A stretch of DNA of 31,026 nucleotides from a virus (taxonomy: Duplodnaviria > Heunggongvirae > Uroviricota > Caudoviricetes): the IMG/VR virus record IMGVR_UViG_2579778802_000007, positions 1 to 31,026 of that record; one strand, 5' to 3'. The notes beneath the pieces are model-generated. The model ran no database searches. It had not been told where the DNA came from and was given only the letters and a program-made list of their open reading frames with translations. Below, piece by piece: positions 12,338-25,904 of this stretch. Both the position numbers and the translations under genes were made by a program. Within the stretch, counting starts at the first letter, position 1; every line of letters begins with the position of its first letter.

Positions 12338-13018
12338 TTACCCCTGCCGCCCGATAACCACGACCTTTCCGCCCCCGCCTTCATCACGGGTACTGATGTC
12401 CTGGGAGATTCGCCGGGAGCCAACCAGCATTTCCCCGTAAGGCACCGGCATCGGGTTCCCCTGGGCAATCATGTTATCCAGCGAGGAAAAGTACGTGTTC
12501 TGTCTGCCGTTATCCGTTACGCGGTAATCCGGTGTTTTTGCCTTCGGGGCCAGCATCTGTGCCATACCGCCCAGTATCATGCTGGCCCCCAGTGAAAACA
12601 GCATCGTGGTGGCAGAAAAACCACCGGCTGCCAGGGCTGAACCCCATAACGCCATCGAGGCACCGGCCGTGAAGAAAGAGCCCACGATGGCTGCCGCCCC
12701 CAGCACAATCTGCAGTCCGCCCTTTCCGGCTCCGGCCAGTCGCGGCACAATGTGGATGACCGTTCCCTCACCCAGCTGTTCGTGAAGACGGGCGTACACC
12801 GCCTCCGGTGCCGTGTCATCACCGGCAATACGTATCTGGTACCAGCCTTCGTTCATCTGACGGCGAAAGCCCGGCATCTGCATCGACAGGGCGCGAATGG
12901 CTTCCGCTGCCGTGTTCACATACAGGCTGAGGCGGCGGCCAAATCGTTGTAAATCCCCGTGAAGGCAGATGCGTGCCAGTGGCGGTGACGCCAGACAGAA
13001 TGCGTTCGTCGTTGCCAT
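12338..13018 (-). CDS. I: Tail assembly protein I
   Basis: Similarity to lambda gpI ('ARICLHGDLQRFGRR...QIVLGAAAIVGSFFTAG...KTPDYRVTDNGRQNTYFSSLDNM'). Confidence 0.93.
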   Translation of the reverse strand: MATTNAFCLASPPLARICLHGDLQRFGRRLSLYVNTAAEAIRALSMQMPGFRRQMNEGWYQIRIAGDDTAPEAVYARLHEQLGEGTVIHIVPRLAGAGKGGLQIVLGAAAIVGSFFTAGASMALWGSALAAGGFSATTMLFSLGASMILGGMAQMLAPKAKTPDYRVTDNGRQNTYFSSLDNMIAQGNPMPVPYGEMLVGSRRISQDISTRDEGGGGKVVVIGRQG

Positions 13019-13653
13019 TTTTCGGAATACCTCTCCCGTTTACTCAGTTGTTCAGGCAGATGGTGAAGCAGCTCACCGTTGCCACAGTAAATGGCGGCAT
13101 GGTTCGGTACCGAAGCACCAAAGCAGCACAGCAGAATATCGCCCGCCTGTGCAGAGGACAGGGGCACCCGGTAAAAGCCCGTTCCCTCCATATTGTCCAG
13201 GTACAGGTTCTGGCCATTGCGCCACCAGTCATCCTCGCGATGAAAATCCGGCATTTCAGTCCCCGCCAGATGGTAAGCATCCCGGAACAGGGTGTAACAG
13301 TCCGTCACCCCGTGTTCAAAGCGCCGTCCCGTCAGGTGTGGCACACAGCGGAATTTGTGAATGTCACCCCGGCAGACCAGCCACCAGGGCAGTGCGCTTT
13401 TTATCTGCAGCCGCCGGTCAGCCTCGCTCAGCCAGGGCAGCCCACCGGGATGACTGTGGACCAGTGCCACAATCTCCCCCGACATCTCTGCCCGCAGCCA
13501 GTCTTCCGGTGCGATACGAAAATACGCCTCCGGCTCTGCGGAAATATTCACACAAGGGATATACCGCTCCCCCTCCGGCGTTCTCACCACGAAGCCGCAC
13601 GACTCCGCAGGCGCACACCGCCGGGCATGTGCCAATATATTGCTATAGAGCAT
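12916..13653 (-). CDS. K: Tail assembly protein K (NlpC/P60-like, JAB/MPN-like)
   Basis: Similarity to lambda gpK ('VHSHPGG.PWLSEADRRLQ...HLTGRRFEHGVTDC.TLFRDAYHLAG'). Start set to ATG 13653, which has AGGAG upstream. Confidence 0.93.
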   Translation of the reverse strand: MLYSNILAHARRCAPAESCGFVVRTPEGERYIPCVNISAEPEAYFRIAPEDWLRAEMSGEIVALVHSHPGGLPWLSEADRRLQIKSALPWWLVCRGDIHKFRCVPHLTGRRFEHGVTDCYTLFRDAYHLAGTEMPDFHREDDWWRNGQNLYLDNMEGTGFYRVPLSSAQAGDILLCCFGASVPNHAAIYCGNGELLHHLPEQLSKRERYSEKWQRRTHSVWRHRHWHASAFTGIYNDLAAASACM

Positions 13654-13707
13654 GAGAACTCCTGATAAAAAACCCAGCCGAGGCTGGGTCATTTCGTTGG
13701 TAATCTG

Positions 13708-14610
13708 TTAGTAGTGATGCAGTGAAGGCGGCAACTCTTTGCTCTTAAGCCTTACCCATGCGGAAAGATTCGTTGGTCCATCTGGCTCATTAATATCAAC
13801 ATCTCGTGTGTGATTGATTAAAACGTCTCTCGCCATTCCAATAACATACGAGAACTCATGGCCGTAGTTGTAGCACCTGTCAGAATAGTTCGATTGAATT
13901 TGCTTTAGCGCCGGATACAGTTCGCGGAATAATGCCTGTGAGCGGTTGGCATAATCCCATAGCCATACAAGGCTGTTTGCTTCTTTTGCGGAAAGCTCGT
14001 TGGTTTTCTTCTCTTGTTTGCCAATGAACTCACCTTCAAGCACTACCCTGTGGATGTACTCTACGGCTTGCGGTATCTGAGATGCATCAAGCTCTTCAAT
14101 ACTTTCCACATTGAAACGCTGATGAATCATTGCATAAGCTTCTGGGTACATTAGATGCTTTTTGCTGACCAGCATATTTACAGCATCACGAAGCGGAGTC
14201 CTGTCATCAACAGATGTTTTCTTACGTGCATTTTCTGCCTTTCCCTTTGTCCAGTAGTCATGCAGCACAGTAAAGCATTCTTCCTGGTACTGAATCAGTT
14301 TATCGCGGATGTCAGCACGAACTTTCTCGGGGTTGATGCTGAACAGCCATCCATTTAACTTCTTCAAAGGAAGGCAGAGTAGCTTACGAAGCTTTCCATC
14401 AGCAGCAACCATATTCATATGAATACAGTTGAACTTATCTAGTTGTTTCATAAGTTTTTGTTGCTGAGTACCCCAGCTCATTCCGAGGTTTTCAACGATT
14501 GGCTTCATCGCAACATATGCAACTCCGGCAGCCATGGCGGTGATAATTTGCTGACCGTTGAATGGTACGTAAGAGGTGTTCACTGCTTCTAAAATTGCTA
14601 TACTATTCAT
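13708..14610 (-). CDS. Antirepressor-like protein (P22 Ant N-terminal-type domain)
   Basis: N-terminus '[22 protein letters not shown]...[21 protein letters not shown]' resembles antirepressor N-terminal domains. Sits downstream of the arc-like gene, as ant does in P22 immI. Start at ATG 14610 (GGAG upstream). Confidence 0.55.
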
Positions 14611-14672
14611 GTTGGTTTTTCTCCACGGATTTACTGACAACCGAAGCCCTGACTGTTCCCGCAGTTGGGGCT

Positions 14673-14876
14673 TCAACTTTCTGCTCTATCAGTTATATCT
14701 TTCCCTTCATATACTTCACCTATATTGCTAATGCTGGCAGAACATCCAAGATGCTTGTATCTTATGATGTCCAACACGCAGTCACTACACAGCATCCGAC
14801 CTGTTTCTTTAGAGTAAATGTATGTTTGATCAGCGTCTGATTCGCTAATGCCGCAGAAACAACATTCTTTACTCAT
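14673..14876 (-). CDS. Small Cys-rich protein (67 aa; CxxC...CxxC, zinc-ribbon-like), hypothetical
   Basis: ATG overlaps the arc-like stop (ATGA); purine-rich SD upstream; 'CCFCG...CSDCV' motif. Confidence 0.4.
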
Positions 14877-15025
14877 ACCATTACCCCCTCTCTCTTCAAG
14901 CTGTCTATCAGGCGCTTGATAACCTCTGAGTTAAACGACCTGCACTCTTCCTTTGCCCTGCTACCTATAGCATCCTTTAACGACTGCGGCATCCTTACCA
15001 AAATCTTACTTATTTCTTTCTCCAT
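14873..15025 (-). CDS. arc: Arc-like ribbon-helix-helix repressor
   Basis: 'MPQSLKDAIGSRAKEECRSFNSEVIKRLIDSLKREG' resembles P22 Arc ('...VRKVAEENGRSVNSEIYQRVMESFKKEG'). Start at ATG 15025 (GGAGGG 4 nt upstream); an alternative in-frame ATG lies at 15037. Confidence 0.7.
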   Translation of the reverse strand: MEKEISKILVRMPQSLKDAIGSRAKEECRSFNSEVIKRLIDSLKREGVMV

Positions 15026-15139
15026 GTTACCCTCCATACAAACAACTCTTTTCGAATACAAAAGATAGCAAAGCGAGTATATCTAGTCAAAATTTTTTTG
15101 CATACACTTTGCTATCAAATTGAATACCAAAGGTGTGAT
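15026..15139. promoter_or_regulatory. Divergent arc/mnt control region with 10-bp perfect inverted repeat GATAGCAAAG (15064-15073) / CTTTGCTATC (15107-15116)
   Basis: Inverted repeat seen in sequence; divergent RHH genes flank it as in the P22 Pant/Pmnt region. Confidence 0.45.
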
Positions 15140-15388
15140 ATGGCAAAGGGTGTGTCAATTTCTCCAACTACGGTAAGAATCCCTGAATCTTTACGCGAGG
15201 CTCTTGCTGTCAGAGCATCAAAAAATGGTCGCTCTGTTAACTCCGAGATCGTCATGATTTTGCAAGCCGCGATTGATGAAGATAGGTCGCCAAAGTCAGT
15301 TGAGTCATTTGCTCAGCAAGAAGCAGACAAATTCAAAGAGGCGCTGCTTGAGACGCTAAAGACCATGTATGGTAAGGATGAAAAATAA
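15140..15388 (+). CDS. mnt: Mnt-like ribbon-helix-helix repressor (83 aa)
   Basis: 'ESLREALAVRASKNGRSVNSEIVMILQAAIDE' resembles P22 Mnt ('...KLKFRAEANGRSMNSELLQIVQDAL'). Same length as P22 Mnt; SD AAGGTG upstream. Confidence 0.7.
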   Translation: MAKGVSISPTTVRIPESLREALAVRASKNGRSVNSEIVMILQAAIDEDRSPKSVESFAQQEADKFKEALLETLKTMYGKDEK

Positions 15389-15924
15389 TGCTGCACACAA
15401 TTCATTTCTTATGCCCCGTTAACACTGCCACTGTTGGGCAACTTCAGAACCACTGTCTCACCGCATTATCTCAAGGCGCAACTGAATTAAATATCCATAT
15501 ATCAAGTCAGGGAGGGGAAACTGCCGCTGGCTTTACTGCGTATAACTTTCTTAAGTCACTCCCTGTTACCGTTAGAACTCACAACATAAGCAATGTTGAA
15601 TCCATAGCTAATATCGTTTTCCTGGCTGGCTCAGAACGTTTCGCAAACCCATTATCAAGATTCCTGTTACATCCTCTATTATGGTGCTTTGCCTCCCCAG
15701 CCGCCGACCATGCCAGATTGAGAGAGTACGGGAAATGCCTCGATAACGATCTTGATCGCTTCGTTGAGACGTTCAATATCGACATCGGAACCCATATTAG
15801 GTGGGCATCCCTGATAGCAGACTCGACCATTTTGGATGCTAACAAGGCTCTTGAGCATGGCATAATTAATTCCATAAAAACTGCAAGGCTGGCATCCAAT
15901 CAGGCAAACTGGTGGGTTGTTTGA
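15388..15924 (+). CDS. ClpP/crotonase-fold serine peptidase-like protein (S14/S49-like), translationally coupled to mnt (TAATG overlap)
   Basis: 'ELNIHISSQGGETAAGFTAYNFLKSLPVTVRTHNISNVESIANIVFLAGSERFANPLSRFLLHP' parallels the ClpP core ('IYLYINSPGG...GQAASMGAFLL...RVMIHQP'), with candidate Ser and His at corresponding positions. Confidence 0.7.
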   Translation: MLHTIHFLCPVNTATVGQLQNHCLTALSQGATELNIHISSQGGETAAGFTAYNFLKSLPVTVRTHNISNVESIANIVFLAGSERFANPLSRFLLHPLLWCFASPAADHARLREYGKCLDNDLDRFVETFNIDIGTHIRWASLIADSTILDANKALEHGIINSIKTARLASNQANWWVV

Positions 15925-15944
15925 TGGGTAAATCATGATTACTC

Positions 15945-15971
15945 CTTATAAAAAACCCACCTGACGGTGGG
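15945..15971 (-). terminator. Rho-independent terminator on the late (minus) strand immediately after L (CCCACC-GTCA-GGTGGG + TTTTTTAT)
   Basis: 6-bp GC stem with 4-nt loop followed by a T-run in the minus orientation, about 10 nt past the L stop. Confidence 0.55.
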
Positions 15972-15980
15972 CATAATCCA

Positions 15981-16679
15981 TTACTGCGAAAGTTTATTAA
16001 TGGAAAGGAAACCGCCAAAATTGCCGACATTCCTGCGCAGTTCACACCCGCGCATGCACTTGCTGCATCTGTCCTTACGGATATCCGTGGTGGGTTTATC
16101 GAACTCATCCGCCACAGCCCCGCCCGTGTAACCACACTCATCAGAGCGGTAGGTCCACATACAGGTGTTCGCCAGCATGATACGACCGGGAAACAGCGCC
16201 CCGTCCGTCTCGGTCGGTGTGGCCAGCACAAACGAGGCCGTCATGGCTGTCAGCTCCGACATCTGCTCCACCACCCAGCGGTCACTCAGCTCCTGCTCCG
16301 GGTCCGCCTCCGGATTGCCCGCAACGAAATTCACCGCATCCAGAAAACGGGCATACACCCGGCGGCGGACCACCGTGGCCCCCACCAGGCTCTGCAAATC
16401 CTCCGCCATTCCGGTGACAAGACCAAACAGATTGGACACCGTCAGCGACGGTCTGGCACTGCTGCCCTTCCCGCTCATCTCAAAACCGCTGCCGTCAATC
16501 GGGTATGCCTCATACTTACGCCCCTGCCAGGTGACCGGCTCCCCTTTTTCATTCAGCTCATTACAGAAAAAATACCGCTCACCGCCCTGTACCGTCAGGT
16601 CGATTTCCCAGAGTACCACCCGCGGTGACTGCTCTGATTTAACCGACTCGTTCAGACTTTCTTCGTGAATATCCTGCAT
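15981..16679 (-). CDS. L: Minor tail protein L
   Basis: Near-collinear identity with lambda gpL ('MQDIHEESLNE...WEIDLT..GGERYFFCNE.NEKGEPVTWQGR.Y'). Confidence 0.95.
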   Translation of the reverse strand: MQDIHEESLNESVKSEQSPRVVLWEIDLTVQGGERYFFCNELNEKGEPVTWQGRKYEAYPIDGSGFEMSGKGSSARPSLTVSNLFGLVTGMAEDLQSLVGATVVRRRVYARFLDAVNFVAGNPEADPEQELSDRWVVEQMSELTAMTASFVLATPTETDGALFPGRIMLANTCMWTYRSDECGYTGGAVADEFDKPTTDIRKDRCSKCMRGCELRRNVGNFGGFLSINKLSQ

Positions 16680-24398: not shown

Positions 24399-25904
24399 TC
24401 ATGGCATGGCCATGAGCATTTTCACGTCCGCATCACCGTCTGCCGACGTCTGTGACACGCCACCCTGCACGGCTGCCGGTGAATGGTTCGCCATGATGCG
24501 TTCAAACATGGCGGTTGTGGATGCAGAAACCGGTTCTGCTTTATCCGGCGATGAGGACAGAATGTCGCGGGCAGCCTCCACCGTCATTCCGGGAAACGCC
24601 GCCAGTTTTTCAGCCTGCGCCTCAGCCCCTTTTGCCTCATCCAGAGCCATAATCTGATCACGGAGTGAGGGTCCGGCATCCGCCTGCGGTGAAGCCGCCA
24701 GGATCGGGCGGGCTTTTTCCACCGTCATCTCCGGCATCGCCGCCAGCGTTGCCGCCAGTTGTTCACGACCTTTAGCCTCTTCACACGCCATAATGCGATC
24801 GGCTTCACTCTGCGTGGATGCCACCGGCTGCTGTGGTGCTGCCGCGGTCAGAATCGCCCGGGCCTGTTCAACGCTCATGCCCTGTTGTCCTGCCAGCATC
24901 GTGGCAAGCTGTTCACGTCCTTTCGCTTCCTGACACGTCAGGATCCCCATCACTCGCTGGTTCTCCTGCGCGGCAGCTTCCGTTGCAGTTAATTGCGGCA
25001 TAGTGCCTCCTGTATCATGTGTGTTCAGCGCCGCAGCCATCACGCTGATGGCATCCGACGCATTGATTAATTCATCCGCCAGCCCGGCCTCAATGCCGGA
25101 CTGACCTTCAAAAACGGCGGCCTCTGTTCCCGTGACTGCATCAACAGACAGACCGGTATACATCGCCACTTTTTCGGCAAACATCCGGCGCGCCGCATCA
25201 ATCCGCTGCTGCATGTCCTGGCGAACCTCTTCCGGCAACGCTTCAAACTGATTGCCATCCACCTTGTGCGCCCCTGAGTAAATCAGCGTGATATCCACAC
25301 CGGCCTGCGCCAGATGACCGGCATAGCTGACATGGCTCATCATCACGCCAATGGAGCCGATACGGGATGTCTGGGTAACCAGCCGTCGGGAGCAGGCCGA
25401 CGCCAGCAGCATGGCTGCAGAACAGGCCGTGTCATTGCACAGTGCCCAGACCGGCTTCTGCTGACGGAGGCGGTAAATCATGTCAGCACAGTCAAACGCA
25501 CCGGCGGCCTGCCCGCCCGGACTGTCAATGTCCAGCAGTACGCCCCGCACCTGGCTATCTGCCATTGCCTGCTGAAGACAGGCGACAATGCCGTCATAGC
25601 CTGTCATTCCGGAAAATGGCCGCATACCCCCCAGCCGGTGCACCAGCGTGCCTGTCACCGGCAGTACCGCAATACCGTTCACCACCCGGTAAACACGGGC
25701 CGGTCGTTTACCTCCGGCCATGTACTCGTCCGTTTCAGCCAGCATTCCGGGTGCATCAAGCTGTACCTGCTGTTGTGGTACCGAAAGACTTGCTGCCCCC
25801 ATCTCGCGCCCGAGCGCGCAAAAGAAAACCCGCGCATAGGCGGGCTCCAGAAGCAGCGGTTCATTGAATGCTGCTGCAATAATGTGTGAAAGATTACGTC
25901 TCAC
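24399..25904 (-). CDS. C: Capsid assembly protease C (S49/ClpP-like) with in-frame scaffold (Nu3-like) C-terminal region containing three tandem ~35-aa repeats
   Basis: Similarity to lambda gpC ('AFNEPLLLEPAYARVFFCAL', 'PVTGTLV.R.....YSGMTGY.GI', 'VWAL.ND...SA..LLASA.SRRLVTQT.R.GSIGVMM'). Confidence 0.93.
   Translation of the reverse strand: MRRNLSHIIAAAFNEPLLLEPAYARVFFCALGREMGAASLSVPQQQVQLDAPGMLAETDEYMAGGKRPARVYRVVNGIAVLPVTGTLVHRLGGMRPFSGMTGYDGIVACLQQAMADSQVRGVLLDIDSPGGQAAGAFDCADMIYRLRQQKPVWALCNDTACSAAMLLASACSRRLVTQTSRIGSIGVMMSHVSYAGHLAQAGVDITLIYSGAHKVDGNQFEALPEEVRQDMQQRIDAARRMFAEKVAMYTGLSVDAVTGTEAAVFEGQSGIEAGLADELINASDAISVMAAALNTHDTGGTMPQLTATEAAAQENQRVMGILTCQEAKGREQLATMLAGQQGMSVEQARAILTAAAPQQPVASTQSEADRIMACEEAKGREQLAATLAAMPEMTVEKARPILAASPQADAGPSLRDQIMALDEAKGAEAQAEKLAAFPGMTVEAARDILSSSPDKAEPVSASTTAMFERIMANHSPAAVQGGVSQTSADGDADVKMLMAMP

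Follow-up and report, generated by a model that had tools for sequence, protein, structure and literature searches.

Introduction

ClpP paralogues have so far been regarded as duplicated housekeeping genes, each particular to a single bacterial lineage. Several accessory paralogues act through mixed barrels, including Listeria ClpP1/2, Mycobacterium ClpP1P2, Pseudomonas aeruginosa ClpP2 and the Streptomyces hawaiiensis ClpP of acyldepsipeptide (ADEP) resistance; in these, a second subunit that is weakly active or inactive alone alters the host Clp machine through the heteromer. Their genes are chromosomal or lie in a biosynthetic cluster, most of the proteins retain the N-terminal region, and to our knowledge none of them is a prophage moron. 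This study concerns a ClpP-like gene in a stretch of 31,026 nucleotides (nt) from a virus of the Caudoviricetes (IMG/VR record IMGVR_UViG_2579778802_000007, positions 1 to 31,026; the whole stretch is referred to as the window). In the window, which is an E. coli prophage, the start of this gene overlaps the stop codon of mnt, the maintenance repressor gene of a P22-type immI region, and the ClpP sub-family to which its product belongs was found to be recurrent prophage cargo.

So far, biochemical work on this sub-family is limited to a single study, on ClpP1 of Pseudomonas plecoglossicida (PpClpP1; PDB 9UXT), in which phages and mobile relatives were not considered (PMC12900304). PpClpP1 has an N-terminal truncation and a Ser-His-Pro 'triad'; exchange of the Ser or the His for Ala abolished its activity, and about 60% was retained when the Pro was changed (PMC12900304). 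Alone, it forms a homotetradecamer with an axial pore 42.7 Å wide, has a peptidase activity approximately 13-fold below that of the canonical paralogue, and does not bind ClpX (PMC12900304). Together with canonical ClpP it assembles into a stable hetero-14-mer with higher peptidase and ClpX-dependent activity (PMC12900304). The tetradecamer, the hetero-14-mer with canonical ClpP and the failure to bind ClpX are established for PpClpP1 only. The protein was expressed by itself in Escherichia coli and in Pseudomonas, and toxicity was not reported (PMC12900304). The phage-borne members described here give a context to that study.

Lambda bor and P22 sieA and sieB are classic lysogen-expressed morons, and encode envelope proteins. 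In P22, the stretch downstream of mnt is occupied by ORF59 and the superinfection-exclusion gene sieA. The region as a whole has been named the 'ant moron' and changes its content fast: ten types of gene content were recognised among sixteen P22-like genomes (Villafane et al., PMC2629481). The original prediction for the window, made from its sequence, proposed that mnt and the ClpP-like gene form a translationally coupled repressor/protease operon outside the canonical immI system. Literature searches did not yield any description of this sub-family as recurrent prophage cargo, of a clade linked to the mnt operon, or of the boundaries of the cassette involved.

A truncated ClpP paralogue related to PpClpP1

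The ClpP-like gene (15388-15924, + strand; ATG at 15388, TGA at 15922-15924) encodes a protein of 178 amino acids (aa). This protein matched the Pfam family CLP_protease (PF00574) with an E-value of 2.2e-11 and a score of 44.4 bits, which passes the cut-off of 20.2. An AlphaFold2 model, built with 30 homologues, had a mean pLDDT (predicted local distance difference test) of 90.1 and a pTM (predicted template modelling score) of 0.86. Foldseek matched the model to ClpP structures with a probability of 1.00, and the agreement was closest with 9uxt_A, the PpClpP1 structure (template modelling (TM) score 0.92, root-mean-square deviation 1.7 Å, 38% identity), compared with TM scores of 0.72-0.81 for canonical ClpPs. 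The ClpP fold that had been foreseen in the original prediction was therefore upheld. At the sequence level, 9UXT was again the top match among solved structures (E 1.6e-35, residues 3-175), canonical ClpPs matching at E 1e-7 or weaker, and the identity between PpClpP1 and the window protein was 38-40%. The equivalog models for canonical ClpP were failed by a wide margin (TIGR00493, 19.2 against a cut-off of 308.6; PRK00277, 31.3 against 249).

In the alignment of 30 homologues, Ser72 (in NVESIAN; codon at 15601-15603) and His95 (in FLLHPL; codon at 15670-15672) were invariant and aligned with Ser97 and His122 of E. coli ClpP, in agreement with the catalytic positions that had been proposed for the LLHPL and NVESIAN motifs. 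A full Ser-His-Asp triad had also been envisaged, and this was not found: Ser and His are kept, but the equivalent of Asp171 is Ser146 (codon at 15823-15825), this position is Ser or Ala throughout the family, and the adjacent Asp145 is not conserved. In the E. coli ClpP reference sequence of the alignment, the S97/H122/D171 numbering is self-consistent.

Other features of canonical E. coli ClpP, namely the SS-GG oxyanion-loop motif and the handle helix, were recognised in the window protein. The protein starts at approximately residue 28 of mature E. coli ClpP, and hence lacks the N-terminal axial loops, which form the gate, and the first helix. The hydrophobic pocket at which the IGF/LGF loops of ClpX and ClpA dock is replaced as well (Y60 to N, Y62 to H, F82 to S, I90 to H and L114 to N in E. 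coli ClpP numbering). The protein retains the Ser-His pair and the barrel-forming fold, without either the axial gate or the ClpX/ClpA pocket. As features for docking an ATPase are absent, its existing automatic annotation, 'ATP-dependent Clp protease proteolytic subunit', overstates its capability.

The length of about 180 aa, the loss of the axial loop and helix, the retained Ser and His with a non-acidic third residue, and the sequence and structure match to 9UXT are all shared with PpClpP1, and the 178-aa protein is a new member of this recently characterised ClpP sub-family. The two proteins differ in the third triad residue, which is Pro in PpClpP1 and Ser in the window protein. The sub-family is small: only 8 clusters (at 50% identity) matched with E 1e-30 or better, the number rising to 524 when the limit was set at E 1e-10.

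The genomic setting of the two proteins also differs. Orthologues of PpClpP1 (65-89% identical; Pseudomonas, Azotobacter and Stutzerimonas) are chromosomal, whereas the window gene is prophage cargo joined to the mnt operon. The possibility that PpClpP1 itself is prophage-borne was rejected, its neighbourhood being chromosomal, with KGG stress-protein genes. In the P. putida-group and P. fluorescens-group genomes examined (loci L043-L048), the orthologues were flanked by genes for KGG-repeat stress proteins and by a DUF6555 gene. This neighbourhood, which was not discussed in the structural paper, hints at a stress-regulon setting for the chromosomal members.

The junction with mnt

The gene upstream (mnt, 15140-15388, + strand; ATG at 15140, TAA at 15386-15388) encodes a ribbon-helix-helix (RHH) maintenance repressor of the Mnt type, of 82 aa. 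Its product matched Pfam Arc (PF03869) with E 9.6e-11, and aligned with the whole of P22 Mnt, its C-terminal coiled coil included, at 36% identity; with the product of mnt in O157 prophages the identity was 66%. The stop codon of mnt and the start codon of the ClpP-like gene form a TAATG overlap (15386-15390), as the original prediction had it. A single base is common to the two codons, the final A of the stop being the first A of the start (15384-15390 reads aaTAATG), and the sequence around the overlap is GAAAAATAATGCTG. A Shine-Dalgarno sequence for the ClpP-like gene, AAGGA, is present at 15374-15378, within the final mnt codons.

The conservation of this junction was examined in 80 viral contigs. 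All of the loci with a protein at least 80% identical to the window protein (32/32) had the ClpP-like gene directly following mnt, and with four further loci the junction AAATAATG was kept in 36 of 36. At least three mnt alleles were found upstream of it, including alleles of 84 aa with a Pfam Repressor_Mnt domain. The junction AAATAATG was also present in a Pectobacterium prophage, in which the ClpP-like protein is only 80% identical and synonymous sites are saturated; for the ClpP-like gene, comparison of the window with this copy gave 1.6 synonymous substitutions per site (dS) and a ratio of non-synonymous to synonymous substitutions (dN/dS) of 0.08. Because it is kept at every one of these loci, including the Pectobacterium locus with its saturated synonymous sites, the junction is not a product of chance. 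The ClpP-like gene itself is under strong purifying selection. Among closer copies, that of phage PhiR12_1 (locus L040, 4085-4621) differed from window positions 15388-15924 by 4 non-synonymous and 0 synonymous changes, which are very small numbers.

An antisense open reading frame (ORF) of 85 aa (15679-15936, - strand) was also noted, antisense to the ClpP-like gene in its 3' half, with a strong AAGGAG-N6-ATG start immediately past the stop codon of the latter. Its start position is kept in the Pectobacterium copy, and homologues repeatedly have one antisense frame open for 36-181 codons, but the reading frame is without convincing conservation. It was judged to be probably compositional, since many stops are also present in the homologues.

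Insertion of a cassette between mnt and its terminator

The immI module of the window lies between two lambda-type tail genes on the - strand, gene K on its left (12916-13692; Prok-JAB and NLPC_P60 domains) and gene L on its right (15981-16679; Phage_tail_L, E 6.9e-92). In O157:H7 prophages, the order K|ant|arc|mnt|L is found and the ClpP-like gene is absent. The mnt gene of these prophages ends in a hairpin, AAAAAACCCACCTGAtGGTGGG, and P22 mnt ends likewise. Alignment of the junctions placed the mnt stop codon of the O157 allele and of P22 inside this hairpin, AAAAAACC(C)ACCTGA(C/T)GG(T/C)GGG. In the window, a G+C-rich hairpin of the same kind (A6-CCCACC-TGAC-GGTGGG, 15955-15972, identified by a terminator scan) comes after the ClpP-like gene, as it does in most loci; it is also 3' of tail gene L on the - strand.

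As the hairpin that coincides with the mnt stop in O157 prophages and P22 follows the ClpP-like gene in the window, this hairpin is the ancestral mnt terminator, and the ClpP-like gene is a cassette placed between it and the 3' end of mnt. The cassette extends from TAATG through the TGA plus approximately 27 nt, and the junction alignment indicated that the final mnt codons move together with it. The gene is thus present or absent among syntenic phages and has discrete boundaries, O157 prophages and P22 lacking it at the same site, as is characteristic of a moron. The proposal that it stands outside the canonical immI system was also supported by this comparison, P22 having mnt followed by the terminator, ORF59 and sieA instead.

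Spread in enterobacterial prophages

Public assemblies contain the identical 178-aa protein very frequently (7904 index blocks). Among 5426 complete E. coli genomes, 128 had the gene, in 126 cases at full length, and many of the 128 came from isolates of extraintestinal or avian origin. Most copies were carried by CUS-3-type P22-like prophages, in which the gene is situated between gene 16 and the gene for the tailspike. The ClpP-like gene adjoined the lambda-type tail gene L in 15 genomes, as in the window, and the same K|ant|arc|mnt|clp|L order was found in PhiR12_1, 4 and 5, which are viable phages that grow on K-12 and C strains. The mnt-clp junction is present in both P22-like and lambda-like phages, and the cassette accompanies different ant types (P22_AR, KilA-N and Bro-N).

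Truncated or interrupted copies, with only residues ~56-62 to 178 left, were found in several prophages (L090, L092, L093, L105 and H98, the last in E. coli ETEC1749); at L093, mnt is located approximately 1.5 kb upstream of the ClpP-like remnant.

The neighbourhood of the cassette held further accessory genes. In CUS-3-like prophages such as L023 (5586-6610), a gene with a YafO-toxin domain (149 aa) and a gene of 188 aa without a Pfam match lie directly 3' of the ClpP-like gene on the opposite strand, and other prophages have a P63C-domain gene or small ORFs of no recognised function in the same place. The position between clp and gene 16 is a site of variable cargo in its own right. In E. 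coli LZHX12, a lambda-like prophage closely related to the window (L042) carries the mnt-clp cassette with a frameshifted ant, and has a full ompC porin gene (4491-5624) between its tail genes L and M.

Linkage to mnt was limited to the clade of at least 80% identity. Relatives at or below 75% identity were solitary genes, mostly on the strand opposite to their neighbours. The relatives from Leclercia (75% identical) and Klebsiella (57%) each stand alone on the opposite strand, with the lysis cassette on one side and the terminase genes on the other, and that from Proteus (54%) is on the opposite strand adjoining N in the early-left operon. Those from Pantoea and Erwinia (51-58%) belong to Mu-like tail clusters, where they separate the tape-measure gene from the gene beside it and are again on the opposite strand. 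At greater distance, the relatives are ordinary genes of the chromosome. Promoter scans upstream of the solitary homologues gave a good match for the Klebsiella copy only, which is flanked by a promoter-like site and a terminator.

When the stretches upstream of homologues in species-representative genomes were searched with phmmer, an RHH gene was present in 0 of 20 loci, and the idea of a family-wide RHH/ClpP pair was dropped for this reason; homologues without such a partner occurred in Klebsiella, Leclercia, Proteus, Pantoea, Pseudomonas and Massilia. The original prediction had raised the conservation of the mnt-peptidase pairing as a point to assess. Conservation is complete, at 36 of 36 loci, within the clade of at least 80% identity, but does not extend to the relatives at or below 75%, so that a 'repressor/protease operon' as a functional pair across the family was not sustained.

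The sub-family is therefore recurrent prophage cargo, found in at least four kinds of accessory slot and in P22-like, lambda-like and Mu-like phages. Several of these slots (after Rz and before the terminase genes, 3' of mnt, and beside N) are of the kinds occupied by lambda bor and P22 sieA and sieB, and the family members are usually on the strand opposite to the surrounding operon. The proteins are unrelated, and the product of the window gene is a cytoplasmic protease subunit rather than an envelope protein.

Possible role of the ClpP-like protein

The gene is tentatively interpreted as a mobile accessory gene, or moron, that encodes a truncated ClpP paralogue, that was inserted into the immI 'ant moron', and whose product enters hybrid barrels with host ClpP. 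This interpretation falls a little short of an even chance in our estimation, and hybrid barrels are preferred because hybrid formation is the behaviour that was measured for the nearest characterised homologue. As suggested by its co-orientation and overlap with mnt, the ClpP-like gene would be transcribed with mnt from Pmnt, and would in consequence be expressed in the lysogen, with translation by coupling or re-initiation at TAATG. Since the mnt transcript would be shared and the mnt stop is overlapped, the ClpP-like protein is expected whenever Mnt is made, i.e. in the lysogen. By analogy with PpClpP1, the protein may form rings or tetradecamers of the ClpP type and would be unable to recruit ClpX or ClpA by itself. 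Co-assembly with host ClpP could then produce hybrid barrels, and the activity or specificity of ClpXP and ClpAP would be changed in lysogens. The lysogen might gain through the exclusion of other phages or through altered stress proteolysis, and a role in superinfection exclusion or another benefit to the lysogen is possible.

Several points weigh against this interpretation. The hybrid with E. coli ClpP is extrapolated from a Pseudomonas protein that is 38-40% identical, Pmnt was identified by eye and expression from it is inferred, and the strict retention of the mnt junction within the clade could reflect a functional tie to immI. As some copies are truncated, the gene is dispensable for the prophage. 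A scan of the ClpP-like protein against PADLOC-DB v2 matched 0 defence families, and literature searches did not retrieve any paper tying a phage-borne ClpP-like gene to a phenotype.

The best-surviving alternative to hybrid barrels is a stand-alone, gate-less and ATP-independent peptidase, which would form its own open-pore tetradecamer and degrade unfolded or disordered proteins without host ClpP or an AAA+ partner; it could act, for example, on early regulators of superinfecting phages or on the proteins that these eject. The N-terminal truncation and the lost docking pocket are consistent with such an enzyme, as are the wide-pored homotetradecamer and the Ser/His-dependent activity of PpClpP1 alone, and the gene sits in a sieA-type slot. 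This explanation is nevertheless rather unlikely, given that the activity of PpClpP1 alone is ~13-fold below that of canonical ClpP and rises in the hybrid, and that PADLOC did not return a match.

Either kind of assembly could underlie a broader proposal. In lysogenic conversion by temperate phages of the Enterobacterales, the gene for a ClpP subunit without a gate would be disseminated. In hybrid barrels or as an ATP-independent open-pore peptidase, this subunit would re-programme the host Clp protease, protect the lysogen from other phages and provide proteolysis-based superinfection exclusion in the sieA slot of P22. Possible targets would be disordered early regulators, replication proteins and ejected proteins of other phages. 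We regard this proposal as unlikely. If it were true that prophages alter host Clp substrates, lysogenic conversion or the exclusion of phages would have a new route, with a possible bearing on stress tolerance, prophage induction and ClpP-targeting antibiotics.

A protease dedicated to immI, co-regulated with Mnt in order to remove, for instance, stray Ant, or Arc or Mnt, would be in keeping with a stop/start coupling that is invariant in the clade across several mnt alleles and two phage types, and with the last mnt codons that travel with the cassette. It is argued against because the relatives are solitary or chromosomal and the immI module exists without the gene. The system works without it in P22 and occurs without it in O157 prophages; the relatives at 75%, 69% and 52-58% identity stand alone in unrelated prophage slots and lack an RHH partner, in line with the 0 of 20 genomic loci; and the ant genes that accompany the cassette are of three unrelated types. 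We consider a dedicated function of this kind improbable, and the ClpP-like protein is probably not an immI-specific protease.

The arrangement of a small upstream RHH gene, whose stop overlaps the next start, is also typical of toxin-antitoxin pairs. In a toxin-antitoxin or abortive-infection module, the RHH protein would act as antitoxin to a toxic ClpP-like effector, and an ungated ClpP could be toxic in principle. Such a module is very unlikely here, because the RHH protein is a genuine Mnt orthologue in the normal immI position and close homologues commonly occur without any partner gene. In addition, toxicity was not reported when PpClpP1 was expressed alone, and PADLOC did not return a hit for the ClpP-like protein. 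A paralogue or remnant of a ClpP-type head-maturation or scaffold protease, as suggested by the top PHROG match (phrog_94, 'head maturation protease', E 7e-21), the NCBIfam model Clp_rel_HeadMat (NF045542, E 5e-13) and the annotation in one phage record, is hardly credible, since the NF045542 score of 49.3 bits is far under the cut-off of 120, the gene is in the tail region between K and L on the strand opposite to the late genes, scaffold and capsid domains are absent from the protein, its nearest relatives are chromosomal Pseudomonas ClpP1 proteins, and the window has, as originally predicted, a separate head protease of its own (lambda C-like, S49 family, 24399-25904, - strand, in a lambda-like structural module).

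The immI region and other features of the window

The window carries a complete P22-type immI region, as is evident from the Mnt orthologue divergent from arc and ant, with the expected Pfam domains, and from the sar antisense RNA. The ant gene (13708-14610, - strand; open frame to 14676) encodes a P22-type antirepressor of 300 aa from its ATG (P22_AR_N, E 8.5e-45; P22_AR_C, E 2.8e-28), and its DNA is 85-95% identical to the ant genes of P22 and epsilon34. The arc gene (14873-15025, - strand; open frame to 15061) encodes an Arc repressor (Pfam Arc, E 8.5e-12), of 50 aa according to the annotation of identical prophages (L023). The sar RNA (14611-14678, + strand) was identified with Rfam RF00262 (95.6 bits, E 1.8e-20).

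The layout is that of P22, with mnt divergent from arc-ant, a sar RNA, a position of the module within the late operon, and cargo 3' of mnt that is lysogen-expressed in P22 and would be so in the window. The differences are that the window has a ClpP paralogue overlapping mnt where P22 has ORF59 and sieA after mnt, that an additional small ORF is present between arc and ant, and that the module lies between the lambda-type genes L and K, compared with genes 16 and 9 in P22.

This additional ORF (orf67, 57-67 aa; 14673-14876, - strand) is small and Cys-rich, matched phrog_7150 (function unknown) with E 3e-50, and is called as a gene in prophages of the L023 type; P22 has no gene at that place. 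Its product starts with MSKECCFCG and later contains CSDCV, and looks like a zinc ribbon. The sar RNA overlaps the 3' end of orf67 and the start of ant. A promoter scan detected a Pant-like sigma-70 promoter, TTGACT-17-TATCTT (15062-15090, - strand; a consensus match), which would serve arc, orf67 and ant, and orf67 would be co-transcribed from it. In the PADLOC scan, a weak BrxA match to Mnt (E 0.028) was dismissed, and Mnt and the orf67 product were otherwise without a match to defence families.

A candidate Pmnt was recognised by eye at 15105-15118 (+ strand), with a putative extended -10 element, TGcTATCAA, at 15110-15118. It overlaps the right arm of a 12-bp inverted repeat, also found by eye, whose left arm is GATAGCAAAGCG (15064-15075) and right arm CACTTTGCTATC (15105-15116). 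The two arms are complementary at 11 of 12 positions and flank the Pant/Pmnt region. A search of the arc-mnt intergenic region for inverted repeats with a spacing of up to 30 bp did not find any; the arms seen by eye are 29 bp apart. In the O157 allele, both arms are altered together, to TATCAC-GTG, and they look like candidate allele-specific operator half-sites.

Elsewhere in the window, a gene with an S-adenosylmethionine (SAM)-methyltransferase domain (2809-3477, + strand, 222 aa) is located near the end of the structural module, on the strand opposite to the tail-fibre genes, and may be another moron.

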